63,665 nt of DNA, filler included, from Reticulomyxa filosa (GCA_000512085.1; 15 parts of 15 records of this genome joined end to end with filler, not necessarily neighbours in it); one strand, 5' to 3'; positions 12,056 to 45,986 are shown, counted from the first letter of the whole stretch. Numbers and translations are program-made. The notes: generated by a model from the letters alone, not told the origin.

Positions 12056-13298
12056 ATGAGCAACCAAACCTTTCAATCTTTGAAGGAGTTGCCTACCCCA
12101 CTTTTTCTACCTCAATGTGTGCTACACAAACACGAAATCCTCATTTGCGGAGATTACAAACGAAGTGCTTGCTATTCTTATCATATACTTAAAAACGAAT
12201 ACAAATTTGTCTGTAATTATCCAAGACATGTCAAATTAGAAGGACACTGTGTAGTGAAACTGATAGATAACAACAATAACAACAACGAAGACAGTAATCA
12301 AGTTACTTTGTTGTCTTTTGGTGGAGCATTTAAACATACATTAGTGATGAAATATGTAAGCGTTTGGAGTAATACATTAGATATATCAAACAAATCAAAT
12401 GAATTGAACAATGACAATCAATGGACTCCTTTCACAGACAATCACAATAACCCAATTATCATTGGAAGATCTCGAGATGAATATAATGGAGTGCGTGCAG
12501 TGATTAGTGGAAGCAACAATCATTTATTATTTATCACTTATCTTAAAAATAATATAAGTGTATTTGATTTAAATATATTTCAGTTTATTAGACATGATAG
12601 ATTACCAACTGATAATTGGATATGGGATCATTGCTTTGTATCAAATCCAAAAAATAGACAAGGACAAGGAATAATAAAAACAAATCAAGAACAAAATGAA
12701 CAAAATTGTCAAATGCTATTATTTTGTAAAAATGTAGGATTATCAATTAAATATGATAAAGATAAAAACATTTTTCAATTTCGTAAACTATTTGTTTGTG
12801 ATAATATTGCACCATTCAGCAATTATGCATATATGTGTATCAATGATGTCATCTTGTTCTTTGGTGGATGGAATGGTAGAGTTGATGGTATTGATGTTTC
12901 GACATCAGTACATAAGTATTCAATTCGAGAAAACAAATGGATGACATTTAAAAACACTTTACCCATTCCACTGTTTAATTGTGTTGCAATATTGAGTAAA
13001 GAAGACAATTATTTACACATCGTTGGAGGAGTAAATAATAAAAGGAAAGCATTACTAACTCACATGAGAACTAAAATGCGTATATGGGATGTTTCACATT
13101 TGGTAATGATTTGTTTATTTATTTATTGTGATGAAATATAAATATATTTTATTGTATAATACTGATTGACAAATAATAAATAATAAACAGTCAAAATATG
13201 AAATAAAATTTATTGTTGAATACTGGGTTCGAACTTTAAAGATAAAATTAGGATGGATCGATAACTTTGATCAAATTATTATAAAATACAGTATATGA
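12056..13298 (+). CDS. Kelch-like beta-propeller protein with C-terminal 'LGWIDDF' module
   Basis: Exon 12056-13102 has Kelch blades (ILFFGGW...VHKYSIRENKW...LPIPLFNCVAI...LHIVGG). Intron 13103-13190. Exon 13191-13298 is SKYEIKFIVEYWVRTLKIKLGWIDNFDQIIIKYSI*. Confidence 0.85.
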
Positions 13299-13993
13299 AG
13301 TAAATTTTAAAGAAGCACAATTAAGGCATCTGTTAATCAAATTATAAATTATATCTTTCTTAAGTATTTTCAAAATATACCAAGCTAAAATACATTCTTT
13401 CTTTTTTTTTCCTTGAGATAAGCTTTGATGATGCAAAGATGACGAAAAAAGACTCTTTTCAATTTTTTTTTTTAAGATCACGAAGGGTCAACAAAAAAAT
13501 GGAATATAAACTTTGTAATGTAGAACTATTTGGAAAATCAATATTCTATTGCAATCATGCGCATTAAACAGATATATTGTTGTATTTGCTTTGCAATCAA
13601 GTTGCCTTTTATTACAATGTTGATTTAATCATCTTTTTTTTTCTTCAAAGTCAAATCAAAAATGAAATGGGTTTTGCAAGCATCAAAATAATGCATATGC
13701 AACATCGTTTAATGAATGAAAACAATTAAGGTGGTGAAGAATATATTAATTTCCAAAAATACAACAAGCCAGGAATAATCAGAGGATAAGTCATTTCATT
13801 AGCCCCTTTCCATCAAATTGGTCAATTTTGTCACCCCCTTAAAAAATTGAACAAAGTTACATTCATAGAATATCTGTTGAAATTTGTTATTTGTTTTAGT
13901 TATTAAACTTTAAAAAGTTAATAATCATAAGACAGGCACAGCTAATCTTTTTAAAAAATATTTACAAAAATCAATAAAGATAAGTTTCAAACT

Positions 13994-15271
13994 TTATTTC
14001 TTTCTACTATATTTGAATATAATTTGATCAAAATCATCAATCCATCCTAATTTAATCTTTAAATTTCGAATCCAATATTGAATAATAAATTTTTTTCATT
14101 TTTTGCCTGTTCATTATTTTTTTATTTGTTAATCAGTTTCATGTAATATATAAAATGTTATTACAAAAAATAAATAAATAAATAATTACCAATTGTGAAG
14201 CATCCCATACATGCACTTTTGTTTTCATGTGAATTGATACTATTGTCTTTTCGTCACTTTGTCCCCCAAGAATGTGTATATTAGTGTCATCTTCACTCAG
14301 TATTGCAACACAATTTTTCAATGGACTAGATAAAGTGCTCTGAAATGTAATCCATTTGCTTTCTTGAATCAAATATTTATGCACTAATCCTGAATAAACA
14401 TGATTCCCATAACCACCAAAGAATAAGACGATATCATTTATACACACATATGCGTAATAATTAAGTGATGCAATATCACCTCGAACAGATAGTTCATTAA
14501 ATTGAAAAACGTTTTTATCTTCATTGTATTCAATCGATAATCCTGTCTTTTTATAAAATAACAGCATTTCATAATTTTTTTTCTTTTTTCTTTATTTATT
14601 TTCATCATTTCTTGGCCATTTTCTAATCTTGATACAAAGCAATGATAAGATATTGAAGTAAATGATGAAATTGGTAAAGTATGATGTTTAATAAATTGAA
14701 ATGTATTTAAATCAAATACACTAATATTATTTCTCCAATAAGTGATAAATAACAAATTATTGCTGCCTCCACCAATCACTGCACGTACTCCATCATAATC
14801 ATCTTCATCTCTCCCAATGATAATTGGATGATTGTTATTATTTGTGAAAGGAACCCATTGATTGTAATTGTTTGATTTATTTAATTTATTCATTTCATTG
14901 TCATCACCCCAAATACTTACATATTTCATTATCAATGTGTGTTTCTCCATTCCACCGAAAGACAGCAAAGTGATTTGATTTCTGTCTTTATTATTATTTA
15001 CCAGTTTCACTACACAGTGTCCTTCTAAATAAACATCATTTGGATATTCACAGATAAATTTGTATTTGTTTTTGAGTGTATCATAAGAATAACAATCTCT
15101 TTGATCATAACCCCCACAAATGAGGATTTCATGTTTGTGTGGCACACATTGAGATCCTGTAAGCGAAGTGGGCAAATCCTTCAAAGCTTGAAAAGGAGTT
15201 AAAGTAATAATATGTTGACCTTGTTCAATTTGTTCAGCTTTTCTTGCAAAAGATTTAATTCGATTAGCCAT
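13994..15271 (-). CDS. Kelch-like propeller paralog with C-terminal module; two 1-nt frameshifts in A-runs (sequencing error or young pseudogene)
   Basis: ORFs 15271-14438 and 14567-14139 are consecutive halves of a paralog of 12056-13298. Intron 14189-14107; module exon 14106-13994. Shifts at ~14575 and ~14092. Confidence 0.8.
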
Positions 15272-15439
15272 GTTGTTAATGTTGCTGAATTTTTTTTAAG
15301 TAGTTAAACTTTTTTTAAAAAAGGGACGACAACAATTATTTTTAAAAAATTTCTTGTAATACAAAAAAACAGCCTTTTTTTTTGTTAATGAAACAATTTG
15401 AGTACACATTAATATCGCGTAATTTTTATTTGTTTATAG

Positions 15440-15660
15440 TCAAACAGAAACAATTGCAGTAAAGAATATCGAAATTGGTGGTAACTCAAATGTGATATGT
15501 TCCGATCAGAAGATAATACTATTCGATTTTGAGATATTCGAGCAGATAATTTTTTGTGATTAAAGGAGGACATAAAATAATGTGTCTTAAATTCTATAAT
15601 TAAAAAATGATAGAAAGGGAATTAATGATAGTGGATAAGATATTAATTGTGTTTTAGTTC
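15440..15660 (+). pseudogene. Decayed WD40 gene fragment
   Basis: AATATCGAAATTGGTGGTAACTCAAATGTGATATGTTC...GATAATACTATTCGATTTTGAGATATTCG is a degenerate copy of ~17000-17085 (NIEIGDNSNVICSGSWDNTIHFWD) with a stop and indels. Confidence 0.6.
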
Positions 15661-15877
15661 AAAGGCTCCACTTTATAAAATGAAACGATTTTCCTTCCCT
15701 AATTTATAGTTTTGTATTGATCTATTTTAAAAAAATAAAACGAATGAATTGCTAAGTCCAATCAAAGTATTTTTAACAAACCCTTTCATTGATCTTAAAA
15801 AAAAAAAGTTGAACAATTTTTTTCTTACATCATCTAATCTAATTCAATCTCAAAAAAAAAATTTAAAAGTGGAAACA

Positions 15878-17239
15878 ATGACCACTTCAACACAGCTTGA
15901 ATTGGTAACCTTTTTTAATCTTTAGCTTCATGTTTTACTGTATTGTTATCTGTGAGTTGTGTTTGCAATTGAATCAGTTAAAAGAAGAAGATGTTCAAAA
16001 AATTATTCAATATTGGATAAGAATATTAAAAATAAAATCAGGATGGATTCACGACTTTGATAAGACTGTTGTCAATTACGTTATGTTTTTGTATTTTTTA
16101 CAATGACAATCAAAATAATCTAAATTTATAATTATAACTACTATTCACAGATAATTACTTTCTTCATATTTGACGCGTTTCAGTCATCATCCAAATTACT
16201 CAAAACATTCACTGGGCATACCAACACTGTGTGGAGTATTGATTACGCGACGTTTGATGATGGTCAATTTATTTGTTCTGGATCATCAGATAATACAGTT
16301 TGTGTGTGGGATATAGAATCCAACAAACAAATTCGACAATTCAATGAATATTCAGGTGGTGTATATTGTGTGAAATTTTCACAATATCATTATCATAACA
16401 AGCATCGCAATGTCATTTGTTCTTCATCAGGCAATACTGTTTATTTTTGGGATATCAAAGATAGTCGACAATTACAAATATTTGATGAACATGCTGCCAA
16501 CATAATTGGAATTGAGTTCTCGTCATTTAATAGTGGTAGATATTTATGCTCTGGATCTAGTGACAATACAATTCGTTTATGGGATGTTGAAACATCCAAA
16601 TCATTACATGTGTTCAATGGACATGAAAGTGGTGTTTGGTGTGTGGATATTTCACCATTACAAAGTAATAACAACAATGATAATAATAAAAGTAATAGTA
16701 TTGGTTTGATTGGTGGTAATGGATATACTATTTGTTCTGGATCATGGGATAAAACCATTCGAATATGGGATATTGAAACAACCAAACAATTGGTCATTTT
16801 CAAAGGACATAAAGAAGCAGTGAGTAGCGTAAAATATGGACTAAATGAATTAGGAATTAATGGTGGTTCAAATACAATATTATCTGGATCAGATGATTGT
16901 AGTGTTTGTTTGTGGGATATTCGATCTGGTCAACAAATTCGAGTGTTCAGTGAGCATGAAAATATTATAAGCTGTGTTGAATATTCACCATTTGTAGTAA
17001 GTAATATTGAAATTGGTGACAATTCAAATGTAATATGTTCTGGATCATGGGACAATACAATTCATTTTTGGGATATGCGATCAACTAAAAATAAATTGCA
17101 TGTAATTAATGGAAATAAAGAAGATAAAGGAATAATATGTCTTAAATTTGTATCATTGAAAAAGAAAAACAACAAAGTAGCAAATGGTGCTAATTTATAT
17201 TACGGTTCAAAAAATGGTTATATTCGTATTTGGGGATGA
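15878..17239 (+). CDS. WD40-repeat protein with N-terminal 'GWIHDF' module
   Basis: Exons 15878-15904 (MTTSTQLEL), 15978-16079 (LKEEDVQKIIQYWIRILKIKSGWIHDFDKTVVNY) and 16151-17239 (about 7 GH...WD repeats). All introns GT-AG, phase 0. Confidence 0.9.
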
Positions 17240-17838
17240 AATCAAAGGAATTTGTAAACAATAAGGCTTGGTGTTTGTTTTGAATGAATTTGTTTTGTTT
17301 ACTATTTTCTAATTAATTTATGTTATAGATTGTAATATTGTTTGATTGATGACTCTTTTTTTTTGCGGTCGGTTGTATATTTTAAATTGCTTTGAAGAAA
17401 ATTTTATGTTTTTCAAATGTCAAAATAAAAACAAAATATTATTTTAATACATTTCAATTCATAAAATATCTTTTTGTCCAATTTCATGAAGATTTAAAAA
17501 AATCTATTCAAAAACTTGCCTCGAAATATCCTTTCATTTCTTATGAGTTTGCATTTTGACATATCCTAAAGAGAAATTTAAGATTTCACTGACTGTAAAC
17601 ATGTAATGTTCTCAATTTTGAATAAAGAAATCATATGTTGTTCAATATTAGATAGTAATTTACTTTGTTCTAGATCAGATGTTGCGTTCGTGTTTGGGAA
17701 TAAACATATGTTGTGATTTTAATTTGCTTTATAAGTTGGAGTGTTAGTTTGATAAGCATTTCTTTACTTTTAAAAAAATAAAATAGACAAGCATAATCTG
17801 CAAAAACATCAAAGTAGATTTACAAATTTCAAACTTGT

Positions 17839-18883
17839 TTATTCCCAAATTCGAATTGTACAGTCTCTAGAACCCGAAGCAATTGTATTACCATTTTGAG
17901 AAACATTTACACATATTACAGAGCTAGAATGTCCTTTCAATTTTTGTATTTTTTTCCCTGATTTTACATTCCACAATCGAATTGTGTTATCACTTGAACA
18001 CGATACAATTGTTTGGCCACCTGGAAAATATTGTACGTCATTCACAAAGTTTGAATGTCCTTTTAATGTTTTCCATTCTAGTCCTGTTTTAATGTTCCAT
18101 ATTCGAATTGTCTTATCTAATGAACAGGATACAATAAATTTGCCATCTGGAGAAAATTTTGCACGCATTACACTATCAAAATGTCCTTCCAATTGTTTCA
18201 ATATTTCACCAGATTCCACATTCCACAAACAAATTGTTTTATCATTTGATGATGATACAATCATTTTACCATCTGGTGAAAATTGTGAACTCAATACACC
18301 TTTTGAATGTCCTAATAATTGTTTTATTTCAATTCCAGATTGTACATCCCATAATTGTATTGTTTTATCTAGAAAACCTGACACAATATATTTTCCATCT
18401 GGAGAAAAATCTACATCCCATATCCTATTGGAATATCTTTCAAATTTCATTATTTCAGTTTCTGTATTAATATCCCAAAATCGAATTGTCCCATCGCCTG
18501 AACATGAAACAACAGTATTTTCATCTGGTGAAAATGTTGCAACAAAAACTTTGTCAGTATGTCCTATAAAACTATGAAGCTGTTTTCCCGATGTAACATC
18601 CCATATTCGAACAGTATTGTCATATGATGCCGAAACAATCTTGCGACCATCTGCAGAAAATCTTATGCTACTCACGGTACTATCATGTCCATATAAAATC
18701 ATTGATAATTCAAAATCTCTTACCTGTTTGAAAATGTAAATTATATCATAAAAATCATTTATGTTTAAAAAAGCACCACTTAACATGTTTCATAATAATT
18801 TTATTAAAATCATCAATCCATCCTAATTTTATTTTTAAAATTCGAATCCAGTGTTGAACAACAAGTTTTATTTCTTTTTTTGG
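17839..18883 (-). CDS. 7-bladed WD40 protein with highly regular repeats, preceded by the module exon; 5'-truncated
   Basis: Exon 18883-18785 is PKKEIKLVVQHWIRILKIKLGWIDDFNKIIMKH. Intron 18784-18724. Exon 18723-17839 has seven 42-aa GH..V....FSPDGK.IVS.S.D.TIR.W units. Confidence 0.9.
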
Positions 18884-19361
18884 CTGTTGATTGTTTCATA
18901 TAATAAAATATANNNNNNNNNNNNNNNNNNNNNNNNNNNNNNNNNNNNNNNNNNNNTTAATTAATTAANNNNNNNNNNNNNNNNNNNNNNNNNNNNNNNN
19001 NNNNNNNNNNNNAAAAAAAAAAAAGGTGTTGTGGAATTTTTGTTAATTTTTCAATTAACGGACTTGTTTCAAGAATGATGTACTTTGGGATGAGTTCATC
19101 CTTAAATCTCTCAAAACTTGTTAAGGGATCGTCACCCTTCAAAAAAAAAAAGATCATTATTTAACTTCTTACACAGTTTGCTTTGCACCTCGCGTATTAT
19201 TCTAGTGCCAAAGACTCAATACTGGACTTGTATTTTTTTGAAAGTATAGGCACAGGGAGGAAAAAAATACTTTTGTTCCCCTCTTTTTCTTCTTGGCGGG
19301 AAAAAAAAAAATCCCTTAGATTCAGTCGGACGCAAAATTTCTTTGAAAAGGTATTCTCGAA

Positions 19362-22164
19362 ATGAGCGACGATAAGAAAAAAAAAGCAAAAGAAGGAGAA
19401 AATGTGAAAATCTATGCTCGTGTGCGCCAGCTGATGCCATGGGAGCCTAGAAAAGTTAGTCTTCAGATCAAAGGCAACAAAATCAGGAACCACACGAACA
19501 AAACAACAAACGAATACTCGTTTCAAAATGTCTTTCCTATTGAATGGACAAATGAGGATATGTTCAAAGTCATGGTAGAGCCAATGATTGACAATGTATT
19601 GAAAGGATTCAACGCAATTTTGATTGCCTACGGACAAACAGGTTTTATTTTCTTTCTTTCAAAAAAAAAAAAAGAAAGAATTTTTTTTTTTGAAACTAGA
19701 TAAAGTCCAATGAATAAATAAAAAAATGTAAACAACGAACAGGGAGTGGCAAGACATTTTCGATGTTAGGAAAGCCTCATTTGAACGTAGTTGGTTTGCT
19801 GCCTTACATGTTAAAAAGAGTAGTGGAATCGCCGGGGGTGACTAGTGTCGATTTGACAGCAGTGGAAGCGTTTGGACATCACGTCGCTCGTATTGAACTG
19901 TTTGACTTATTTGACCCGGACAACCAAACCCCTAACTGGGCCGAAAAAAAGGGAAACACCGGTTTGGAACCCGAGAAAGCGACCAGCGTTCCTATCAAAG
20001 ATATGGATGACGCTTATAAAAAAATTGAAGTTTGGCCCCTTTTTTATTTATTTATTTTTATTCAAAAAAAAAATTTAATACGTAAACATGTTACAAATTG
20101 GTAAATTGTTCATTGTTTGCGAGAAGGGGGGGGGGGACACGGATCAATGACGATAAGAATTTGGAATGTTAATAATATATAATAGTACGCTCATCGTGGA
20201 TCACATTTTGCCCCGACAGGTAAAAATCCAGAATCGTCACGAGGTCATGTGACATTCATTGCATCGATAACGCAACAAAGCAACGATCACACCGAATTGA
20301 CAAGCTATTTTGCAATGGTTGACTGTGCCGGTAGTGAGGGTGAAAGTGCTTTCACTCCTGACTTTATTGCTGCTGTTGACAAAACGACCTTAATGGCCAG
20401 GCGATTGGAAGCTGGTTGTATCAACACCGGTTTGTCGCAATTGCAAATCGTTTTCAATGAGTTGCGTGTCAAAGGTAAACATTTTTTTCTTTCTTTTTAA
20501 AATAATTCAACCTTTTTTTTTTTTTTCAAAAAACAAAAAAAAAAAATTCCTTTTCTATTTTTCTTTTTAAATTTGTAAAAAAAAAAAATTTTGCAATCAA
20601 AACAACTTTTCTTATAACACACATCAATTTTTATGTATACGTTGATGAAGAGGGGGAAAAAAAGGGGGAGGAAGAAAAAATGTGTAGCGGCGGAAAGAAA
20701 TAATAATTGTAAAAAAACTACATATAACGTACTAAATCAAGCTAAAAGATGAAACACTTGTGTTCATAGGCCAATTGTCAGAAATGAGGGGTAATGGATT
20801 GCGACGAGTGTTGCATCCGTACATTAACACTCGAACGTATTTGTCAGTATTGTTTACGTTTTCTCCTTCGATCAACAATTCCAAAGCAACGGAATCTACA
20901 TTGAAGTTTGCCGTGACTGCAGGCATGGTGAAGGTGCAACCAGTCAAAGTGGAGCTTTCCGTCAATATGGAACAGTTGGTGCAACAACTGCGACGACATA
21001 TTGAAGAAAATGTTTTGTAATCTTTGCTTTGTGTCTTTTCTGACTTTGTTACAGTAAGAGAAGGAGAATCTTTTTACGCCTCGATCTCACTTATGTATTT
21101 TATAATATTTTTGTATATGAATGTATATGATATATTCTAATATGTATTCGTTATCAAATTAAAGTTGACGGAAGAGAGTTTTTTTTTTTTTTTCGCCGTT
21201 TTCAAATATAAAAAAATGGCGTATGTTTAATCGACTAACAAATATCATAAACTGCTTATATTTGGTGTGTATTGTTGCCAGGATAAATTAATCGAAGAAC
21301 AAAATGACAAAATTATGAATTTACGGGCCGACTTGGAAAAATTGTTGCAAGATGCGATGACGGCGGGAGATTTGCCCGAAGACTTTGTCTTGGAAACAGA
21401 AGCAGAATTAGAAAGTGCCGAAATAGTTGAGGATGACGCTGAGCAAGGCGTACATCGCGTGTATTCGTCAACATTAGCAAAAGAAATGACCAAGCGTCAA
21501 GAAAAAACACACTCCACCTTGCCAACCAAGTTATTGTCACAATTGAAAGAATTGGACGAGGACGAAGAAGAGGAAGAGATTACATTTGATGAGAAAATGT
21601 ACGTGTTTGAAGGAGAATCAGGAAAGCTTTCACAAAAAGATGTGGAAAAAGAAATGCAAGCTGCATTGGACCGAATGCAAAAAACCAACCGAGGAGACGA
21701 AATGATCAAAAAGGCAGTTAGCGTGGATCAAAATAAATCCAATGTCGACAAAACGAAAGACGCAATGCAACAATTGGCGGGCACTTTGGCTGCCGCGACA
21801 TTTGATCCTTCGGCTGCTACAGGTTTAGTCATTGTTCAATGTTTATTTTTTTTCCCTCCTTCTTCTCTCTCTTCTTTCCAAAAAGACATGCTTTGGCTGG
21901 TTGTTATCATCGCGAATAGACCCAGAAGAAGAACCTGCCGTTTTTGACACCGTCGCTGTCAACATGGATTTTTCACGAATGAACAAGCAAGAACTGAAAG
22001 ATGTTTGTGTGGACACATTCGACAAAATAGAAAAAAATAGAGAAGAGCAAACGAAATTGCAAAAGAAACAACAAGCTGTTGTGGGTCACTTAGTTGAAAC
22101 AAATGAATGGCTCTTCAACACTTTGAGTGAAATTTTGAATGACAAAGACGAAAAAAAGAGCTAA
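19362..22164 (+). CDS. Divergent N-terminal kinesin motor protein with coiled-coil stalk and tail
   Basis: VKIYARVR; P-loop AYGQT|GSGKTFSM across intron 19642-19742; switch I NPESSRGH; switch II VDCAGSE; TESTLKFA. About 6 exons. Confidence 0.92.
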
Positions 22165-26484: not shown

Positions 26485-26528
<44 letters not shown>

Positions 26529-27488: not shown

Positions 27489-27523
<35 letters not shown>

Positions 27524-33894: not shown

Positions 33895-34030
33895 GTATTT
33901 TTCCTCGATTGAAAAAAAATTTCCAAAATTAGTCTGCGCCCATTGGGACAGTTGTGATCACATTGTATGGTGAACACAACCCAGCTTTTCTCGTGGAGAA
34001 AAGATAAGCGCGTTGTTCAGTGTTTTTTGC
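33895..34030 (-). ncRNA. Candidate Sm-class small RNA (unassigned)
   Basis: GC-richer island with a three-way junction closed by GCGC/GCGC, then AATTTTGG (Sm-like), then a hairpin with G-U pairs on the minus strand. No match to U1/U2/U4/U5/U11/U12 signatures by eye. Confidence 0.22.
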
Positions 34031-36007: not shown

Positions 36008-37032
36008 AAACATACAATTGAATTAAACACAACTCTAAAGTTCAACAAAAAAAGAACAAATATATTGTAAATTTAAACTTGACATTCGCTTTTTGCATGA
36101 CCCTGTTAACATAGTCACAACAAAATACAAAGAGTAATTTTTTCGAGAAGTAACATTTCGTAAAATGTCAATATTACTTGCTTAATATTTAGGGATTGAC
36201 TTTAAGTGATTTTTTTGCAATTTTCAAAATCATATGTTTGTTTTTTAAAGGAAAACAGTTAATGCCATGTGACATAAAAAGCGTCACAAATACTGCTTTG
36301 CGGGTTATTTTGAGTAAATTGTTCTTTGTGTTTGTCAGCATTTGTCTTTGCATGTTTTTGCACTATCGGAACAATACCAACTTCAAACAACCGAACACAA
36401 AACAAAAAGAAATAGCGGGCAAAAAGCGAAAATAATTTTTACTTAATTGTGCACGCGAAAAAGGTTTAGTTCCATTTTTTTTTTTTTAAATCTGGCATTA
36501 ATGTGCTTCTTTCACAAACTTCAAAGAGCATGTAATCATTTTTTGCAATCCTGTAATGCAAGGAGGTCACATGTGCCAAACTAACCGAATGAAGTTATGA
36601 TCTCTAGTTGACTAAAAGCGACTTTACATTTATTTGCAAATCGTTGTTCGTCTTCATAAGAAATGTATATTTATTTACTTATCTTAAAAAAAACTCGTTA
36701 AATTTCAACTTAAATATTTGATCCTTAAAAGATAACTATTAAATGATGTATATTTTTGAATTAGACTACTAAAATTTAGCTTCATTTGTGGTTGTGAAAT
36801 CAAAATTATAATTAGACTCATTTGTTGTAGCTTGTAGCAAAACGTGGTCGATTTGAAATTTACAAAATTGACAGCTTGAAAACGCATGATTCATGATTTG
36901 TACACATAAACTATAACCATGAAAAAAACAAAAAGGCAAGAAAAAAATTTGATAAACGTGGAAACGAATGCTTCAGACAACAATCTTAGAAGACGACAGA
37001 CACAAACGTAAAAAAACCAACAAAAATTTGAT

Positions 37033-38437
37033 TTAGGTTGCCTGTGGAAACATGTATTGTAATTTGATCATCAATGCATCTTCATCACTTTGACTCATAC
37101 TAGCAGATCCACTTTCACTCCATTCATCATCTATTTGTCGCGTATCGTCTGCACTTTCACTTTCGCTGTCTTCCGCGTCATCTTTGCTATCCACCAACAC
37201 AACTTCTGGTGCAAATGTGTGACAAACTTGCAAGAGCGCTTTCAAGTATTCCATATCCAAATATTGAATACCACTCATGTGGTCATCCAGTGCTTTGATA
37301 TCGTCCGTGACGTTGATCAAATCTTCAATATTGAGTTCACTTATTTCCAACACTCCGATGAGGAACCCTTATCCATTTCACAAAAAAAGCTATCATTGAT
37401 CATGTTTGCAAAGAGGAGGGGAGGATATTATACCTTCTGCAATGAAAGGCATAAAAGTATTGACAACACTTTCTTTATTGACAACGATGGATGTGGAAGG
37501 TTCATTTTTGGCGTTGCTTTGATCGAACTCATAGATAGAGCACAAATAATCATATAAGAATTCGGCAACGAGTTTAATAGATTTATTGACTTGTGATGTT
37601 GCCTTCAATAAATCATCGCCATTTGAGTTTGACTTTGTTTTTGTTTGTGTTTGTGTTTGCGTTTGCGTTTCTATTTCTTTTTGATACAAAGATTTGTAAT
37701 AAGCGTTGACGGATTTGAGAAAATTTGGCAGCAATTCCAAATGACTATAATGGCCAGATTTGTTTATCAATGAAAGTTTATTCGGGCCAAACAGCGGATT
37801 TTCAATTGAATACAAAGAGTAGTCCCCTTCTTCATCTTTGGCAATCCATAGTAGCTCTGTTTTCTCCCCCCCCCCATTCCCACCGCCGCGACATAACCAT
37901 CACGTATACACCTCACACATATGATACGTGGTGTACACGTTTGGGCCTCATTTTTGTAACAAATAAAAAAAATAAATAAAAACCTGGAGCATCTACCCCT
38001 TCGAATGGTTCATCGACAGGGAATCTCGTGGGGTTACAAAGGCCAATATCCAAAGCGAAAATGAAGCCGCAATCACGTAGAATGGCCCTGCAGTGTTTGC
38101 TCAGTTTTTTGGGGAAATGTTTGCCCATGATTTTGTGCACGACGTTTCGGATCAAAAACTTTTCGCGTTGCATAGTCTCGGGAGACACTTGCAATGTCTT
38201 AATGCTCATGCCATCCAACTCTTCAAACACCAAAATAGTTGGAGGATGCGAGGACTTGCTTTCGACTTGTTGATACTCGCTCCACAAATGATATGCCTTA
38301 TGCGAGTCCTTCGACGTTATCACATCTGCCGATGGCACACACACGCCAATTTGCGAAGCAATAAAATTTCCAAGCAACTCCCCTGCAGCATTTTCAGGGA
38401 TGTCCACACGAATTTTAGCCGATTTGGACATGGCCCT
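37033..38437 (-). CDS. Actin-fragmin-kinase-like (PI3K-fold atypical kinase) protein, probably catalytically dead; 5'-truncated
   Basis: ELLGNFIASQIGVCVPSADVI, ILVFEELDG, CGFIFALDIGLCNPTRFP and LYSIEN follow the AFK motif order; three exons. Confidence 0.55.
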
Positions 38438-38651
38438 CTACCCGAAGACACATTCAAAAGTTCAATACATTTTTTTTTTTAAAAAAAAAANNNNNNNNNN
38501 NNNNNNNNNNNNNNNNNNNNNNNNNNNNNNNNNNTTAATTAATTAANNNNNNNNNNNNNNNNNNNNNNNNNNNNNNNNNNNNNNNNNNNNATATATATAT
38601 ATATGTATACGTATATGTGTAAAATTTTTTTTTCTTCTGTCCCGTGTATAG

Positions 38652-38902
38652 GCAGCACTACCATTGTCTTGATCACTGGTCTCATTTGCTTCAAAATTTG
38701 CGATTTGTGCGATGCCACTTATGTCTACTATGCTTTCTTTCCTATTGACTCGATGATCAATATCACTTGTCTGCTTTTCAGTGTCAAGTTTGGACATCCG
38801 TACTACATGAAAATGTGTGGCGGCGTTCACGAATATTTGTACGTTCGCTTCAATTCTTCCAAAAAGGCGTTGGCTGAAACCGATGATATGCAACCACGGT
38901 AG
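38652..38902 (+). CDS. Last exon of a multi-pass, 7TM/GPCR-like membrane protein
   Basis: Two hydrophobic helices then PIDSMINITCLLFSVKFGHPYYMKMCGGVH, resembling a TM7/helix-8 end. Confidence 0.4.
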
Positions 38903-39629
38903 TTGTTTTTATTTATTTTGACTTTGTCCTTGTCTTTGTCTTGTTTGTTCCTGATTTGAAAAAGTACTCACATTCATTTTCATTCGAGTAAACGTGCGTG
39001 GTTTTTGTAATATGAAAATAGAACTCAATATAATGTACAAAACCCTTTTCTTTGTTTGTTTGGTTTGCCCTTTCAATATTTTCAGATAAACTGAGTTCTT
39101 GTTTTTTTTCTCGTGTATAACATTCTTCTTTTGAGCCAAAAATAAAAAAAAGATGTTCACTGAGAAATGAAGCTCTTCCAGTAAATCGCTTGAAGTAAAA
39201 GTTTGCAACGCAGCATTAAAACACCCCGATCGCTTGGAAAAAAAAAAAAGAAAGGGAAAATAATAAGTACGTAGCGAGACAGATTCATACAATTAGGGCA
39301 ACAACGCATGCTTTCATCCATTTCTAACAGAGGCAAACTCAAATTGTTGAATACAAACACAAATAACAATTTTTTTTCGCAAACAACTCTTCACAACCGC
39401 AAATGCAAAGAAAAGAAACGCAAGCCAACAAAGCACTAGCGCCTAAAAAAAAGAAAAACAACAAACAAATAAACAAACAAAAGAAGCTCAAAACAAAAAA
39501 AGCCACGTTAATCAACAACACTAACCACAACATAAAAAAACTATCAACGCGGTATTGTTTTTGCGGAAAGAATCTCATCTTCAAACAATTTTCCATTTGC
39601 AGGAACAAAAAAAAAAAAGGTCACTGCTT

Positions 39630-41243
39630 TTAAGAGGATGCACCATCAAGAGCATCTGTTTCGGGTCTTCCTTCAATGCTCAATTCGGTTTGATGTCTTG
39701 TTGATTGCCATCGTTGCATTTGAGTTAAATAATCATCCGAAAAAACTCCTTGTGACACCAAGTGTCCCTGTGGCAACAATGCACGTTTAGCATATATTCA
39801 CACAATTGTGATTGCATAATGAAAAGAACAACACTGCCAAACAAAAATTCAACTAAACAGTAACCCATGGATGTACAGACACTTGAGCAGCAGTTAATCT
39901 TTCTTTGGCGTTTTTAACAAGACATTTTTTAATCAAGTCTTTGGCACCATCGGAAATGCTATCCCATTGAGGAGAAGGAAACGTAAACTTGGCTTTTTTG
40001 ATCGAATGATACAAGTTTTTCATATTATTGCTCGAGTCAAAAAATGGAGGATATCCACACAGTCTACATATACATACATATGTATGTATATATTATGCTA
40101 TATATATATTTTTTTTTTATTAAAAAATATGTTTGTTCGTTGCATACAAAGTGTAAATGATGACTCCAAGTGACCATATATCGACCTCGATTCCATAGGA
40201 CTGATTTTCCAAGACCTCTGGGGCGGCATAGTGCGCAGTTCCACAAGGAGTGGTGCAAGGACCACCGATTGTATTTCCGGCCAACCCGAAATCAATGACT
40301 TTGACAGGACTGTCTTCATCTTTTGTGGAATACATGATGTTGTCAGGTTTCAAATCTCGATGCACAAAGCCTCGTTCGTGCAAATGCTGTAAGCCACTAA
40401 CCACTTGTCGAATGACATGCGAAGCAGCCGTTTCACTAAACGCTTTCAAAGACACTACACGTTCAAACAAATCTCCACCATCACAAAGCTCAACCACCAT
40501 ATATATTCTTTTTGTCGTCTCACACCAGTCTAACAACTTAACTATATTCGGGTGGTTGCACTATTCATATTTTATGTTGTACACAATGTATGTATATGTA
40601 TATACATATACATATGTGTATATACATTATATATACGTATATGTGTATATTAATTTGAATACCCTTTGCAAGACATAAATTTCTTTTTGTAAAGCTCTAA
40701 TGTCAGGTTGAGATTTGCCTTTTTTTTCGATCATTTTTAAAGCAAACAACTTTTTGTCTGACTTTCTTGAGATTTTTCGGATTTTTGAAAACGCCCCTCT
40801 GAGTTCATCATAGACATCCGTTCGTTTTTGGTTCATTTTTTTTTTTTTTTGAGTGTATACCAAAAAAAAATAAGTAACTGTCCAATTTTGCCCGCTTCAA
40901 TCCAGTATTTTTTAAAAAAGTCTCTTTCCGTCAACTCTTTGGCGGAAGACGAGGCCTCTGTTTCCAAGGGCTCAAGCCGAGGACTACCCTCACGGGTCAG
41001 TTGTGTGTCTGGCTGCAAAGAAATTTCAAAAAAAAAAAAAAAAGTTGGTAAATAATTCGCTCACGTATCTTTTATGGAGAAAAAAAAAAAAGACCTGTTC
41101 ACTTTCTCTCGGCTCTGTCGATGATGTATCGATGGATACGGCGGTGTCATTAAGCACGTTGGAGACTGTGTCTGCTTTTGTCTCGTCCACGAAACGCGTC
41201 CATTTCCGTTGCCTTGGCTTTGGCAATGACGCTTTTGATATTA

Positions 41244-41278
<35 letters not shown>

Positions 41279-41617
41279 AAAACAACACGGTCATTTATAA
41301 TTGATATGCACAAACTATATACAATATACACACATATGTATATATAATTTTGTTCTTTTTTTTTTTTTGATTGGGTAAACTTGATGCAATAAACACTGGC
41401 CCAGTTTGAGTACGGATATGTTTGATCGATGCTATTTTTCGATGGCTAAACCGGCCATTTTCCAGCGAGGCACCGTGTTCTGCTACTGCCGTCGCTGTTG
41501 CTGATGGCGAACGAGAAGAAGGATGAAAGAGAGGAGGAGGAGGAGGAAGAGGAGAGGTATTGCCAGTCGATCGACCGGAAGTTCGTTCATGACGGTTTAT
41601 TTTCTCACTTCCATTCC
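39630..41617 (-). CDS. CaMK-group (CaMKI-like) Ser/Thr kinase with N-terminal extension; 5'-truncated
   Basis: KIGQ|GAFSKIRK, FALKMI, HPNIVK, VHRDLKPDN, IDFGLA, CGTAHYAAPE, DIWSLGVI and CGYPPF over several exons. Confidence 0.92.
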
Positions 41618-41750
41618 CTTTTGGTTTTACCAATTCATACACATACAAAAATATTCAATTTTTTTTTTTTTCTTTGGAAAATTGGAAGGAAGGAAGGAAG
41701 GAAAGAAGAGAGGGAAAAAAAAAAAAAAATACAAGATAAACCTCCCCTTT

Positions 41751-41784
<34 letters not shown>

Positions 41785-42445
41785 NNNNNNNNNNNNNNNN
41801 NNNNNNNNNNNNNNNNNNNNNNNNNNNNTTAATTAATTAANNNNNNNNNNNNNNNNNNNNNNNNNNNNNNNNNNNNNNNNNNNNTTATTTCTTTTTTGAA
41901 AAATAACTTGATTTTATGTCACAAAAAGGAATGTTAAGAATAATTTATTTTGATTTTTTTTTTGAAGTAGATTTTTCCAGAAATAAAAAATTGGAGTAGA
42001 AAAACGAGTTTTTTTTTGGTCGGATGGTTGAAAAAAAACTCACCCTTATTCACCGAATAAGATATTTGATTGATATCTTCACTATTAAATGCAAATAAGA
42101 TATTATATCAAATTATATTTTCATAATATATGAAGTACTTTTGCTTTGTGACAGGAAAAATAAAAAATAAAAGTAAACTTATGAAAAATGATAAAAAGTA
42201 CTTGTTAGAATAAAGAGAGTACTTATATCAATCAAAATATTTTTTATTATCCATGTTAAACTATTTAGACAACTGCAATGTCTGATAAACGACAGATATT
42301 TTTAGATTTCACTTTAATGTCAATAATAACATGTTTCATTTTGTGTTATTTGATGACATTTAAAAGAAATGAATTAAAATATAAATTCAAAAAGATCCAA
42401 TCAAGATATTTTGTGGAAAAGGTTAATATTCAAAAATAATGAAAA

Positions 42446-42714
42446 AAGGAGTACATTATCAATCTCCAAAGAAGAGGTTGTAGGGCAAGCCCTGTTATAA
42501 GTATCTGAACGTTAAGGGAACGGAAGAATCCCCAGTAGGTTAACTTCCTCAACAACTTACTCCTTACTTTCTTGCTTTTCTTTTGTTATCTTGTTTTATT
42601 ATTTCAATTTCTTTCGTTTTTCGAAATCAATATTCTCTTCTTAGTAAACACCTCTCGTATTACAGTTAGTGTACCACTACTATCAGCAGACGTCCCAAGG
42701 TGAAAATTGTTTAC
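42446..42714. ncRNA. Candidate structured non-coding element (two fold-back modules)
   Basis: 42446-42565 is closed by AAGGAGTA/TACTCCTT with internal hairpins. 42644-42714 is closed by GTAAACA/TGTTTAC and CACCT/AGGTG. Confidence 0.22.
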
Positions 42715-43388
42715 GGTAATAACACAACAAAAATTGTCAGCAATTTTTTAAGGTTGACTAACTGTTAGTTTTTGAATTAACTTTGTTGTTTGTCTTTGTG
42801 CGAAATAAAGAGATTCTACTTAAAATATTGAGAACATACTTTTCCGTGTGCATTAAGCTGATATTTCAATTGTCTAAGTTCGGACAAAACACTTACATTT
42901 GGGACGGAACGTGCTCTTTTCCGTTGACAGTGTATGTTCATCTGATCAAATAATATGATATAGATAAAATAATAAAACAATTAAAAAGTAGTTCAAATGA
43001 TGATATAATTAGATCACATTCATACGGTACAATTCACATTTGAGAGTAATGCAAACAAAATGTTTTTTTTTCACATGCAATTATTGTTTTGGTAAAAACT
43101 CAAGGTGTAGTTTTTTGCACATCTTATTGTCAAATAAGAACAGCTAACAACAATGAGCGCAATAACCAAAAATTATTTGGACAATATTTTTTAAAATAAA
43201 TGTGAAGAATTTGTTTTGAAAGTGTGACAAAACTTGGTAAAGTTGTATTTGAAATTATGCATTTGATCCTCTTTGAAATCGCCAAAAAATAGTAATTAAT
43301 TTTAATAATTAAGAACGGGATGTAAAAATCTACGAAATGGCAATAAAGCAGAGAAACAACAATGACAACAAAAAAAAAAGTGTAACAC

Positions 43389-43820
43389 TTAGTAATTGTC
43401 AGTTAATTTTTTTAATTCCACGTGTTTACCAAATTTTTTTCTCCAGAGGACATGTTTGCGATCATCCAGGTCAACACCATTGAGATGAGGTAGGTTGGTG
43501 ATTTGATAGGATTGAGTATTTCGGTTAAAGTCTAGCAAAAACACATCATTTTCGGCCCACTTGTCGTTGAGCACAATTTCTTTTTCCAAGCACTCAATGA
43601 TGTGATGGAGTAGATTGTCGATAACAGTTTTTTCTTTGTTGGGTTCGATGTCGTCCAAAGTCACTTTGGAAAGACGACAGACTATTGGCGTGGCTTCATC
43701 ATCGGCGGCAAATCCACGAATGGCATAGTCAAATCCACTGTACTTATATTCCACATATAAATAATCACGTTCGAACGAGAACACAGGGAACTCTGTTGCA
43801 TGGATTTTATCAAAACACAA
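43389..43820 (-). CDS. Terminal exon of an uncharacterised globular protein
   Basis: 143-aa open frame with coding-like GC content and normal amino-acid composition; no family recognised. Confidence 0.45.
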   Translation of the reverse strand: MCFDKIHATEFPVFSFERDYLYVEYKYSGFDYAIRGFAADDEATPIVCRLSKVTLDDIEPNKEKTVIDNLLHHIIECLEKEIVLNDKWAENDVFLLDFNRNTQSYQITNLPHLNGVDLDDRKHVLWRKKFGKHVELKKLTDNY

Positions 43821-44716
43821 GCAAATAAGTTATGCAATAAAATGTATATATACTATTCTGACAATAAAACCAAACAAAAAAAAAAACAAAGATAAAAANN
43901 NNNNNNNNNNNNNNNNNNNNNNNNNNNNNNNNNNNNNNNNNNTTAATTAATTAANNNNNNNNNNNNNNNNNNNNNNNNNNNNNNNNNNNNNNNNNNNNAA
44001 GTCTTTGGAATTTACTTTCTTTGGGCCGTTCGACCAAACAAATAACTGTCGAGTTTGTTTTACAAGCACATTTTTCTTTTGAACGCTATAAAATTAAAAA
44101 GCATCATTCATGCAAACACAAACCGTTGCATTTGGCACTTCTGTTCCGACAATAGAAGACATTATTATTTTTTTATCTTGTTTGATATCCCTATTTGGCA
44201 ATATCTTTCTTTTTTAAACTATTATTTTTTACCTGGAGCAACCGTCTTTTGATACGTAACTAAATTATTACTTAAGATGCATAAATTTTTAAAAACCAGT
44301 GTAAATTGCCAGAAGAAAGTGTTCAAAAAATTAAAATTACTACTGTAGATTTTCTGCTGCTGAAAGAGGTGCACAAAATGTAATACAAGAGATTTCGCTC
44401 TTCTGAGCAATTTAAAACAAAAGAATATTAATTAAATAAAAGAAAAACAAATGACAAGATTCAGCCAAGTGGAAGAGGAAAGACAAATAAAATAATTGAT
44501 ATTATTGAAATGAGTCTGACGGATTATCTTTGGAAAATTAGTATTTAAAATTGTTTACCAGTGAGAGATAGCATTTGAAAAGACATAGTTTTAATTTTAT
44601 TTAAAAACAAGTTTTTTTGGAATAATTTATTGAAATGTAAAATACTTTTTTGTTTTTGCACGCTGTGTCAAACCTTTTTTCAAAAAAAACTTAAAAGATT
44701 CATTAACATTAGCAAA

Positions 44717-45986
44717 ATGGCTAATCGAACTACAATTAAACAACGTCAACATCTTAATACCTCAATTCCCTTTCAAAGGTTGAAAGATTTACCCAATCCA
44801 CTTCGTCAAACTCAATGTATATTACACAAACATGAAATACTCATTTGTGGAAGTTATGAACAAAGAGCTTGTTATTCTTATCATATACTCAAAAACAAAT
44901 ATAAGTTTATATGTGAGTATCCAAGTAATGTTCAATTAGAAGGGCATTGTGTAGTGAGACTAATAGATAACAACAACAATAATCATATCACTTTGCTATC
45001 TTTTGGATCTTCTCTGTTTGGAGAAAATAAACATACATTGGTAATGAAATATGCAAGTATTTGGAGCAATACATTAAACAAATCAAATAACTACAATCAA
45101 TGGGTCCCTTTCACAGACAATCACAATAGTTCGATTATCATTGGAAGGGATAATGACAATTATTGGGGAGTTCGTGCGGTGATTGGTGGAAGCAACAATA
45201 ATTTGTTATTTATTACTTATTATTATAATAATATTAGTGTGTTTAATTTAAATACATTTCAATTTATTAACATGATATTTTAAAAACTAAAAATGAAATA
45301 TGGTATCATTGCTTTGTATCAAATCCAGAAAATGGACAAGGACAAGAAATAATGAAAATAAATGAAAGAAAATAAAAAAAGAAGTTATAAAATGCTGTTG
45401 TTTTGTTTCAAGACAGGATTATCAATTGAATATGATGAAGATAATAACACTTTTCAATTTCATCAACTACCTGTTTGTGACTATATTGCACCATTCAATG
45501 AATATGCATATACGTGTATCAATAGCATCATCTTGTTCTTTGGTGGATTGAGTGGTAATAATGTTCATTCAAAGTCAGTTCACAAATATTCAATTCGAGG
45601 AAACAAATGGATGACATTTCAAAATACTTTACCTAGTAAATTGCATCATTTTGCTGCAATATTGAATGAAGAAGACAATGATATACACTTAATTGGAGGA
45701 GTAGATTATAAAAAAACAACATTATCAACTCACATGAAGACAAAAGTGAGTTTATGGTATCCTTCACATTTGGTAATAATTTGTTTATTTATTATTTATT
45801 TATTTTGATAAAACACAAATAAATTATATTATTATATGAAACTGAGTAACAAATAATAATGGACAGTCAAGAAATGAAATAAAATTTATTATTCAATATT
45901 GGATTCGAACTTTACAAATAAAATTTGGGTGGATATACGATTTTGATAACATTATTATGAAATACAGTAGAATGCAAGAAATTTGA
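44717..45986 (+). pseudogene. Kelch-like propeller paralog with C-terminal module; two frameshifts
   Basis: Colinear with 12056-13298. Shifts at ~45270 (one base missing) and ~45365 (one extra). Intron 45773-45866. Module exon 45867-45986 is SRNEIKFIIQYWIRTLQIKFGWIYDFDNIIMKYSRMQEI*. Confidence 0.8.

Follow-up and report, generated by a model that had tools for sequence, protein, structure and literature searches.

Evidence for diversifying selection on a putative ligand-binding face in a large Kelch propeller family of Reticulomyxa filosa

The window, which is the whole stretch of DNA analysed here (63,665 nucleotides), consisted of 15 short contigs of Reticulomyxa filosa, a freshwater foraminiferan, chained by N44-TTAATTAATTAA-N44 linkers. 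A first-pass annotation had placed three full Kelch paralogs between positions 12056 and 45772. Three Kelch paralogs lie in this span and all are full-length, but the span crosses joined contigs rather than forming one locus, and an uninterrupted ORF was present only in copy 1. Copies 1 and 2 share the contig at 10292-18912, and copy 3 lies on a separate contig (43999-46876). The following features were identified:

10898..11354, plus strand: copy 4, a propeller relic, internally deleted and frame-broken, recognised from nucleotide matches to copy 1
12056..13102, plus strand: copy 1 exon 1, an intact six-bladed Kelch propeller of 349 codons (ORF, Kelch_1, AF2 model, entropy)
13103..13190, plus strand: copy 1 intron, 88 nt, GTAAT...ACAG
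13191..13298, plus strand: copy 1 exon 2, encoding the conserved tail SKYEIKFIVEYWVRTLKIKLGWIDNFDQIIIKYSI and then a stop
13994..14189, minus strand: copy 2, intron of 83 nt at 14189 to 14107 and then the tail exon at 14106 to 13994
14190..15271, minus strand: copy 2 exon 1, a Kelch propeller of full length whose frame is shifted once, in an A8 run near 14578
15975..17239, plus strand: neighbour gene, tail motif (15975-16082) and, after it, a WD40-repeat ORF (16229-17239)
17839..18883, minus strand: contig-end neighbour, tail motif (18883 to 18779), GT...AG intron and seven-repeat WD40 ORF (to 17839)
44717..45772, plus strand: copy 3 exon 1, a Kelch propeller of full length in which two frameshifts, near 45269 and 45370, compensate each other
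45773..45986, plus strand: copy 3, intron of 94 nt at 45773-45866 and then the tail exon at 45867-45986, encoding SRNEIKFIIQYWIRTLQIKFGWIYDFDNIIMKYSRMQEI and a stop

The genes followed one plan, in which a propeller exon, a short intron (83-94 nt) and a conserved 35-residue tail exon succeed one another. When the copy 1 intron was aligned with those of copies 2-4, p was 0.06-0.22, compared to 0.45-0.47 in shuffled controls. Reading through the copy 1 intron yields the false hydrophobic C-terminus VMICLFIYCDEI, and hydrophobic C-termini of this kind (LVMICLFIY and similar) were rejected as spurious, the product of an intron starting GTAAT. Copy 1 was 100% identical to RFI_21803 over 97% of its length, and protein P0001 was 100% identical to copy 1. 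The pieces of copy 4 matched copy 1 nucleotides 464-601, 874-907 and 933-1241, and its intron and tail exon (11247-11354) were intact. Four frameshifts were found, two in copy 2 (the second in an A7 run of the tail exon) and two in copy 3 (where HCFVS is read in a different frame), each at or beside an A-run. Past the exon 1 frameshifts, the frames stayed open for another 142-148 codons in DNA of 26-28% GC, a pattern in keeping with sequencing errors or very recent breakage.

Both sequence motif and six-blade fold place these proteins in the Kelch-repeat beta-propeller superfamily. Pfam Kelch_1 scored 21.1 bits on copy 1 (cut-off 20.1), and paralogs P0008, P0018, P0066 and P0004 passed the cut-offs of Kelch_1, Kelch_2, Kelch_6 or Kelch_3; the matches were confined to the C-terminal blades, the remaining blades being too divergent. 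The AF2 model of copy 1 (pLDDT 88.4, pTM 0.87) contained 24 strands arranged in six blades with an N-terminal closing strand, the propeller beginning at about residue 6. The best Foldseek matches were Kelch domains (KLHDC10, ESP, NS1-BP, LZTR1 and Keap1; E 1e-13 to 1e-9), and VIA-align gave Z scores of 24-28.5 to solved Kelch domains, the highest with the NS1-BP Kelch domain (Z 28.5, rmsd 2.0 over 257 residues).

Searches for partner domains were negative for BTB and BACK in copies 1-3 (E ≤ 1) and six annotated paralogs (E ≤ 0.01), for F-box and SOCS-box in copies 1-3 (E ≤ 1) and annotated paralogs (E ≤ 0.01), and for all four families in the isolated tails (E ≤ 10). A BTB-Kelch (KLHL/KBTBD) Cul3 adaptor was therefore rejected, as the N-terminal BTB and BACK went undetected, and so was an F-box-Kelch (FBK) SCF adaptor, as no F-box was detected in the proteins or isolated tails. 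An NLR/STAND receptor was rejected because no central P-loop NTPase (NACHT or NB-ARC) was found: the Walker A motif was absent in 9 long members, and neither NTPase domain appeared among the Pfam matches listed for 12 long members or among the 25 families listed of the 74 matching 51 long members.

The tail of paralog P0044 was predicted to form a helix-loop-helix (10-residue pLDDT block means 52-74). The same tail motif stands ahead of WD40 repeats in the two neighbour genes on the contig of copies 1 and 2. A Kelch domain is absent upstream of the neighbour at 15975..17239; any Kelch part of the neighbour at 17839..18883 would sit past the contig end at 18912. In the annotated paralog P0068 the domain order was Kelch-tail-WD40, WD40 repeats were present in 23 of 51 long family representatives, and of the 12 long representatives scanned, 2 contained TPR_12 and 1 contained Peptidase_C14, these fused Kelch-WD40, Kelch-TPR and Kelch-caspase forms being predicted gene models in a fragmented assembly.

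The tail also bears on an alternative that we consider possible but unlikely, namely that the family comprises substrate receptors of a ubiquitin ligase, in which the tail would dock onto the core of the ligase and substrates would be picked by the variable face of the propeller, described below. Such receptors would be comparable to plant F-box-Kelch proteins or to the C-degron receptors KLHDC2, KLHDC3 and KLHDC10, a CRL2 type that binds Elongin B/C through a C-terminal BC-box/Cul2-box. KLHDC10, KLHDC3 and KLHDC2 were among the top structural matches and have the same layout as predicted here, in which a short helical tail lies C-terminal to the propeller. The alignments to 9d8p_A (full-length KLHDC10, model residues 2-365) and 8ebn_A (KLHDC2-EloB/C, model residues 11-363) enter the first tail helix, an overlap judged only by where each alignment starts and stops. 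One tail motif is common to Kelch and WD40 proteins, and in ubiquitin-ligase systems a single box motif serves many receptor types. Against this reading, the F-box, BTB, BACK and SOCS-box searches described above found nothing, a tail profile returned nothing meaningful from PDB sequences (best E 0.87), and an inspection of the tail by eye gave no fit to the BC-box consensus.

The family has several hundred members, and in the collections searched all members seen to date belong to R. filosa. Of 1137 candidates, 362 proteins reached E ≤ 1e-3; the 120 matches listed of these 362 were all from R. filosa, and 119 of them had 54-70% identity to copy 1. When a library of clusters made at 50% identity was searched, 445 of them matched at E ≤ 1e-3 and 230 at 1e-30, and all 10 clusters sampled, down to 32% identity, were from R. 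filosa. No relative was found in the metagenome contigs searched.

The first-pass annotation had described a conserved scaffold with hypervariable loops, and this description was confirmed, with all the peptides it quoted present. Conserved blocks include HKHEILICG, LEGHCVV, TLLSFG, KHTL.MKY, NNISVF.LN.FQFI and HCFVS. The variable peptides of copies 1/2/3 are PLFLPQC/SLTGSQC/PLRQTQC, CGDYKRSAC/CGGYDQRDC/CGSYEQRAC, DEYNGV/DDYDGV/DNYWGV, TYLKNN/TYWRNN/TYYYNN, PFSNYAY/SLNYYAY/PFNEYAY, PLFNCV/PLKNCV/KLHHFA and a loop beginning GGW/GGY/GGL. The two-class pattern holds across the family and extends far past three genes: among 112 aligned paralogs, 187 of 351 columns had an entropy below 1 bit, and 39 columns were hypervariable, defined as an entropy of at least 2.5 bits. 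The hypervariable residues of copy 1 are 17, 18, 34, 35, 60, 62, 91, 92, 140, 144, 163, 164, 186-188, 190, 225, 226, 255, 256, 272, 274-281, 307, 326 and 330-332. Mean pairwise identity was 0.154 at hypervariable columns compared to 0.718 elsewhere, and at the hypervariable sites W (2.7x), R (2.3x) and Y (2.1x) were over-represented and L, M and G under-represented. Identity at hypervariable sites stayed at 0.14-0.17 across all bins of scaffold identity from 0.58 to 0.90, which held all but 1 of 6211 pairs (r 0.13); the sole pair with a scaffold identity of at least 0.90 had a hypervariable-site identity of 0.515.

The hypervariable sites lie mostly in the D-A and B-C loops, which accounted for 32 of the 39; 1 fell in the A-B/C-D loops, 3 at the termini, and 3 either in the N-terminal closing strand or at strand ends beside D-A/B-C loops. 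Expressed per position, 32/111 D-A/B-C positions were hypervariable compared to 1/82 in the A-B/C-D loops (Fisher p 3.8e-8), so that the sites are clustered rather than scattered. At least one hypervariable site was present in 11 of the 12 D-A/B-C loops, and for the twelfth the adjoining residue 307 is hypervariable. In eight of the 12, at least 92% of paralogs share a single length, and variation in these eight is therefore by substitution; loops B2-C2 and B5-C5, of the same class, differ in length among paralogs. With faces assigned from the strand order in the DSSP string and propeller topology, not from coordinates, the selected sites are predicted to share one face. According to passages of PMC3597819, the D-A and B-C loops make up the substrate pocket in solved Kelch domains.

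Codon-level selection was assessed on the DNA of the three window copies with our own GY94-type implementation. Synonymous divergence among them was unsaturated (dS 0.39-0.48; fourfold-site differences 0.24-0.28 compared to a saturation of about 0.6), and the homologous introns differ by only 0.06-0.22. For the three pairs, NG86 gave ratios of dN at hypervariable sites to dS at all sites of 3.37, 2.09 and 2.29, each with a bootstrap 95% interval excluding 1. Fixed-class likelihood estimated omega at 0.18 for conserved, 0.85 for middle and 8.1 for hypervariable positions (LRT 58.6 against omega = 1 for the last). When the 17 hypervariable sites in fixed-length loops were considered, omega was 4.0-4.6 (p ≤ 2e-5) under three codon-frequency models. 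The random-sites comparison of M1a with M2a gave an LRT of 30.9, compared to a null maximum of 4.68 in 40 simulated data sets, and 7 of the 8 M2a sites with a posterior above 0.9 lay in D-A/B-C loops. The D-A/B-C loops overall had an omega of 0.94, not above 1, and about one third of their positions bear the signal. These results show that, in the three sequences, dN/dS exceeds 1 at the hypervariable sites and is about 0.18 in the scaffold.

Such ratios could also arise with no adaptive diversification, if the loops were unconstrained and the excess reflected misalignment, multi-nucleotide mutation, patchy gene conversion or pseudogene decay; we judge this improbable. In its favour are the frameshifts of copies 2 and 3 and the relic state of copy 4, the length variation of loops B2-C2 and B5-C5, the use of three sequences only, and the fact that the differences in most hypervariable codons involve two or three bases; multi-nucleotide mutations or gene-conversion patches of very short length, which may have been at work, would inflate omega in these models. 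Unconstrained sites, however, cap at an omega of 1, far below the values at fixed-length-loop sites. Conservation of the opposite-face loops was close to that of the strands (omega 0.41 and 0.33), a difference between faces that simple loop relaxation does not predict. Local hypermutation was not apparent in the introns or at synonymous sites (pS 0.30-0.41 in hypervariable codons and 0.31-0.35 in conserved codons). Copies 2 and 3, frameshifted in the assembly, could be recent pseudogenes, but an omega of 0.14-0.17 in their scaffolds speaks against prolonged decay, and the A-run positions and long open frames of the breaks likewise count against decay.

With dN/dS above 1 and the sites clustered, the first-pass proposal of diversifying selection on a recognition surface gained support. 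We conclude that the R. filosa Kelch family is probably under diversifying selection on a putative ligand-binding face, and with such selection it would serve as a germline repertoire of binding modules. The scaffold is kept while about 39 positions, mainly in D-A/B-C loops, change amino acids faster than silent sites change. The hypervariable face is the predicted ligand-binding face, where each paralog would bind a different ligand, so that, if this is true, each family member would recognise a different target. All paralogs may be coupled to a common partner through the helix-loop-helix tail and the conserved loops of the opposite face; candidates for this partner are the WD40, TPR or caspase-like modules that many annotated models show fused to the propeller. 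A role as ubiquitin-ligase substrate receptors would refine this coupling step and is compatible with the selection result. R. filosa cells fuse into syncytia, and candidate purposes of the repertoire are defence, allorecognition in the fusing syncytium or targeted protein turnover. The likeness to antibodies or innate-immune receptors is meant as an analogy.

An N-terminal hydrophobic stretch is absent by eye, which suggests that the proteins are intracellular. This location would also suit cytoskeletal or transport adaptors, such as actin- or microtubule-associated Kelch proteins, multiplied with the reticulopodial network, the variable face tuning the binding of many endogenous cargoes instead of foreign molecules. 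R. filosa has an unusually active cytoskeleton and a huge reticulopodial network, Kelch propellers elsewhere bind actin or sit on dynein arms, and a Tetrahymena outer-arm dynein entry was among the structural matches. We nevertheless regard this explanation as highly improbable: conserved housekeeping partners predict purifying selection on the binding face, which the excess of replacement over silent change does not fit, and the fused domains are WD40, TPR and caspase-like rather than motor or actin-binding.

Compared with known systems, the R. filosa family shares six-bladed Kelch propellers with BTB-Kelch proteins (Keap1, KLHL), and the loops hypervariable here are their substrate-pocket loops as given in passages of PMC3597819; it differs in having no detected BTB or BACK and in keeping the Kelch sequence motif in some blades only. 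The C-degron receptors KLHDC2, KLHDC3 and KLHDC10 likewise have a six-bladed Kelch domain and a short C-terminal helical segment, but their sequence identity to the R. filosa propeller is 13-18%, the R. filosa tail has no detectable sequence similarity to their Elongin-binding box, and they are single conserved genes as opposed to a hypervariable family. For the non-self recognition family HNWD/HET-D/HET-E of Podospora anserina, PMC1805685 describes positive diversifying selection at a few positions per WD40 blade on a protein-interaction surface. These proteins and the R. filosa family have in common paralogous beta-propellers, few selected positions per blade and cell-fusing hosts. HNWD/HET-D/HET-E carry WD40 repeats on a NACHT NTPase, number 10 members and diversify by repeat shuffling, whereas the R. 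filosa propeller is of the Kelch type, belongs to several hundred genes and lacks Walker A in the 9 long members. Plant F-box-Kelch proteins and expanded ubiquitin-ligase adaptors resemble the family in their large lineage-specific expansion and conserved docking part. Portions of PMC3719486 report that positive selection in plant FBK proteins is concentrated in the Kelch target-recruiting domain, and in the R. filosa family it is also concentrated in the Kelch domain. In contrast to plant FBK proteins, the R. filosa family has no detected F-box and carries a conserved short orphan motif C-terminal to the propeller, its variability can be pinned to two or three residues in each D-A/B-C loop, and its host is a foraminiferan.

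The window contained 28 runs of 44 N, paired around a 12-mer and dividing it into 15 segments. It is a chain of short R. filosa contigs, not a single molecule, and the order and distance of its segments are uninformative. The first-pass annotation had placed its Kelch paralogs in the span 12056-45772; every peptide that it quoted, conserved block or loop variant, was present, and the span crosses seven linkers. The linkers and the four Kelch copies were located as follows.

Linkers and Kelch copies in the window
5142-5241, 10192-10291, 18913-19012 and 11 more: linkers of N44 + TTAATTAATTAA + N44, in which translation is stopped in all frames
12056-13141, plus strand: copy 1, a full-length paralog with an open frame of 361 codons
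15271 to about 13994, minus strand: copy 2, full-length, with one frame change in exon 1 at an A8 run near 14578 and another in the second exon at an A7 run (about 14090)
44717-45986, plus strand: copy 3, full-length, with one frame shift near 45269 and, about 100 bases on, a second near 45370 that offsets it, each at an A-run or beside one
10898-11354, plus strand: copy 4, a relic with an internal deletion

Copies 1 and 2 are arranged tail to tail on one contig (10292-18912); copy 3 lies on a separate contig (43999-46876), and its distance to them in the window is meaningless. The translation of copy 1 was 100% identical to R. filosa RFI_21803 in the protein search. Copy 4 was missing roughly residues 211-291 and all before residue 155, and its intron and tail exon were intact and near those of copy 1 (intron p-distance 0.06), features that point to a probable tandem duplication followed by decay. 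All four frameshifts of copies 2 and 3 fell in or beside A-runs, and in copy 3 the second shift offsets the first; on both counts the shifts look like homopolymer miscalls of the assembly, and they may instead be real recent mutations. Because the frames stay open for 142-148 codons past the exon-1 breaks in DNA of 26-28% GC, and because the scaffolds are under strong purifying selection, the shifts are either assembly homopolymer errors or very recent events.

The apparent hydrophobic ends of the reading frames (LVMICLFIY and similar) proved to be an intron read through. The propeller exon ends in ...WD.S(H/Q)L and is followed by an intron (GTAAT...ACAG) of 83-94 nt (67 nt in the relic copy 4) and by a second exon, which codes for a conserved tail, SK.EIK.II.YWIR.LKIKLGWIDDFD.II.KYSR, and then the stop. 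Annotated paralogs of 375-400 residues had the same ending.

Pfam Kelch motifs in the last blades were just over threshold in copy 1 and clear in several paralogs. The AlphaFold2 model, built on 112 paralogs (pLDDT 88.4, pTM 0.87), showed six blades of four strands each, with the N-terminal strand closing the propeller. Foldseek and VIA-align placed it among solved Kelch domains, with NS1-BP first (Z 28.5, rmsd 2.0 over 257 residues), followed by KLHDC10, LZTR1, ESP, KLHDC2/3 and Keap1.

The conserved scaffold and hypervariable loops described in the first-pass annotation were borne out as two conservation classes in the 112-sequence alignment, where 187 of 351 columns had an entropy below 1 bit and 39, termed hypervariable, reached at least 2.5 bits with 9-18 different residues each. 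Mean pairwise identity was 0.154 at the hypervariable columns versus 0.718 elsewhere. Strands A-D of each blade were named from the DSSP string of the model, and the face thus follows from strand topology: because its four strands run up and down in turn, a blade must have its D-A and B-C loops on the same face, opposite that of the A-B and C-D loops.

Hypervariable positions by structural element
D-A and B-C loops: 32 of 111 positions
A-B and C-D loops: 1 of 82 positions
Strands: 3 of 142 positions (residues 8, 307 and 326)
Termini: 3 of 16 positions

The hypervariable share differed strongly between the two loop sets (Fisher p 3.8e-8), so that on the model the variable sites appear concentrated on one predicted face (32/111 against 1/82), as had been proposed, rather than scattered. 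At least one hypervariable column was found in 11 of the 12 D-A/B-C loops, and the twelfth had one at an adjoining residue; residues 307 and 326 are strand ends abutting a D-A or B-C loop, and residue 8 belongs to the N-terminal closing strand. An excerpt from PMC3597819 describes the D-A and B-C loops of solved Kelch domains as shaping the upper-face substrate pocket. In eight of the 12 D-A/B-C loops, 92% or more of the paralogs agreed in loop length; only B2-C2 (3-7 residues) and B5-C5 (10-16 residues) varied much. Trp (2.7x), Arg (2.3x) and Tyr (2.1x) were enriched at the hypervariable columns, and Leu, Met and Gly were depleted. Whatever the scaffold-identity bin between 0.58 and 0.90, identity at these columns remained 0.14-0.17 (6211 pairs, r 0.13); the only pair with a scaffold identity of at least 0.90 reached 0.515. 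The loops of the opposite face were as conserved as the strands, apart from three low-complexity inserts of variable length, two of which (residues 102-121 and 197-217) contain stretches of low model confidence.

Low-complexity N/K/Q/E-rich inserts of copy 1, in loops opposite the hypervariable face
12263-12298, plus strand: residues 70-81, 5-13 residues long across paralogs
12359-12418, plus strand: residues 102-121, 10-39 residues long across paralogs
12644-12706, plus strand: residues 197-217, 5-25 residues long across paralogs

Codon analyses covered copies 1-3, the DNA at hand being that of the window alone; a placeholder was set at two of the breaks, one base was dropped at a third, and copy 4 was too broken to be included. 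Site classes were taken from the other 111 paralogs, each at most 72% identical to any of copies 1-3. NG86 dS among the three copies was 0.39-0.48. Fourfold sites differed by 0.24-0.28 against a compositional ceiling of about 0.6, twofold sites by 0.12-0.24 against 0.30-0.42, and homologous introns by 0.06-0.22 against 0.45-0.47 in shuffled controls. We therefore rejected silent-site saturation as the source of a high ratio, silent differences being about half the compositional ceiling and the introns still alignable. At the hypervariable codons, 74-88% of amino acids differed and NG86 dN was 1.0-1.3; divided by whole-gene dS, this gave 3.37, 2.09 and 2.29 for the three pairs (bootstrap 95% intervals 2.04-7.19, 1.22-3.81 and 1.31-4.45).

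In a three-taxon GY94/F3x4 likelihood model (our own implementation, with a shared synonymous rate), omega (dN/dS) was 0.18 for conserved, 0.85 for middle and 8.1 for hypervariable sites, values made imprecise by the use of three sequences. Fixing the hypervariable omega at 1 cost 29.3 log-likelihood units (LRT 58.6, p 2e-14). For the 17 hypervariable sites in fixed-length loops, omega was 4.4 (F3x4), 4.6 (equal frequencies) and 4.0 (F61), with LRT values of 18-32, and under a stricter filter, which dropped every site with a gap or insertion 3-4 columns away or less in one or more of the 112 rows, the nine remaining sites gave an omega of 5.0 (LRT 11.6). Comparison of M2a with M1a, which uses no prior classes, returned an LRT of 30.9 (p 2e-7) and placed 6.4% of sites at an omega of about 15; seven of the eight sites with a posterior above 0.9 lay in D-A or B-C loops, and the maximum LRT in 40 data sets simulated under the fitted M1a was 4.68. 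By whole loop set, omega was 0.94 for the D-A/B-C loops, 0.41 for the opposite-face loops and 0.33 for the strands. The proposal of diversifying selection on a recognition surface is thus supported by ratios above 1 (NG86 2.09-3.37; likelihood omega 8.1) at variable sites clustered in the D-A/B-C loops, for copies 1-3 and under our own models.

Most hypervariable codons showed two or three base differences, and multi-nucleotide mutation or very short conversion patches, which lie outside the models used, could inflate omega. A-specific mutagenesis of the diversity-generating-retroelement type was rejected, since the hypervariable codons differ at all three positions and all four bases are involved.

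Of 1137 candidates in the word-indexed protein search, 362 proteins had E <= 1e-3; the 120 that were listed all came from R. filosa and, the self match aside, shared 54-70% identity with copy 1. When a library clustered at 50% identity was searched exhaustively, 445 clusters reached E <= 1e-3, with 379 still passing at 1e-10 and 230 at 1e-30, and all ten sampled clusters were R. filosa records, down to 32% identity. The family alignment, run against metagenome contigs, gave 263 pattern matches, none of which was confirmed by tblastn. Set against locus-tag numbers near 40,000, the cluster count would put at least 1% of predicted R. filosa genes in one fast-evolving family, a figure that serves as a warning.

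WD40 repeats were present in 23 of 51 representatives of at least 450 residues (unverified gene models in a fragmented assembly). Among 12 representatives scanned individually, also unverified gene models, TPR_12/TPR_10 arrays were found in two and a caspase (Peptidase_C14) domain in one; the source of a further paralog describes it as a caspase-domain protein. In some long family members, a caspase domain, or a caspase-like stretch (judged by eye only) whose catalytic His position seems to be CGYG, lies between the Kelch propeller and the TPR repeats (P0143, about 350-560; P0139, 789-926). An NLR-like reading was rejected, as none of nine long members carried a Walker A motif and NACHT and NB-ARC were absent from the Pfam matches listed for 12 long members and from the 25 families shown of the 74 that matched the 51 long representatives.

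The 35-residue tail was predicted as a helix-loop-helix at middling confidence (10-residue pLDDT block means of 52-74 over residues 341-381 of the paralog P0044). Neither Pfam, searched at E <= 10, nor the PDB sequences, where the best E was 0.87, held a match to it, and an ESM Atlas feature search gave no usable one. The ESM Atlas structure search returned generic helical hairpins and one foraminiferal WD40-fragment cluster, the latter top-listed. Two WD40 genes on the contig of copies 1 and 2 open with the motif that closes the Kelch genes (...QYWIRILKIK.GWI.DFDK...).

WD40 genes with the tail motif at their start
15975-17239, plus strand: first WD40 neighbour
18883-17839, minus strand: second WD40 neighbour

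The WD40 units of both neighbours are regular 42-residue repeats, and most of the differences among them fall directly after the GH dipeptide and near the S.S.D motif; these spots may form a second variable propeller face.

The best-supported reading is that these Kelch propellers are intracellular and form a large germline family, in which the face that binds substrate in known Kelch proteins has been driven to diversify. Purifying selection would hold the frame, the opposite face and the tail, and the drive to diversify would act on one face. We infer that the hypervariable face binds ligands and that each paralog has its own; the tail would couple all paralogs to a common partner. R. filosa is a giant syncytial foraminiferan that fuses into networks, and the role of the family may be defence, allorecognition in such an organism or targeted protein turnover. 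A fuller scheme seems to us rather unlikely: an intracellular germline recognition repertoire of several hundred Kelch binders with a CDR-like face kept diverse by selection, whose hitherto undescribed helix-loop-helix tail plugs into WD40, TPR and caspase-like modules. It would serve immunity or allorecognition while using no NLR NTPases, F-boxes or immunoglobulin domains, and would be the first such system in Rhizaria.

The hallmark of a recognition system is an expanded family of receptors in which the frame is conserved and the binding face is under positive selection; plant NLRs and F-box proteins, fungal HET/NWD genes and lamprey VLRs are examples. To our knowledge, no such repertoire is known in Foraminifera or Rhizaria. 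Our literature search, which did not take in the R. filosa genome paper, found no paper tying Reticulomyxa filosa or foraminifera to Kelch, or Reticulomyxa to WD40, caspase or allorecognition. What appears new is that a well-known evolutionary pattern occurs on a Kelch scaffold, within a phylum for which we know of no such repertoire, together with a putative new docking motif. If true, this would provide a candidate system by which a very large syncytial protist recognises non-self or targets, and a new docking motif linking Kelch and WD40 propellers. It would also supply several hundred natural Kelch scaffolds whose variable positions are defined, a library that could guide the design of binders.

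By descent, the family belongs to the Kelch propellers. The domains that define BTB-Kelch, F-box-Kelch and NLR proteins were looked for and not found in the members scanned, and the likeness to the KLHDC2/3/10 receptors that was observed concerns fold and layout. Two known families evolve in a similar way. In plant F-box-Kelch families, the Kelch domain is under positive selection and the F-box is conserved, according to an excerpt from PMC3719486. In the Podospora HNWD WD40 family, four residues per WD40 repeat, located at the interaction surface, are under diversifying selection, as described in part of PMC1805685.
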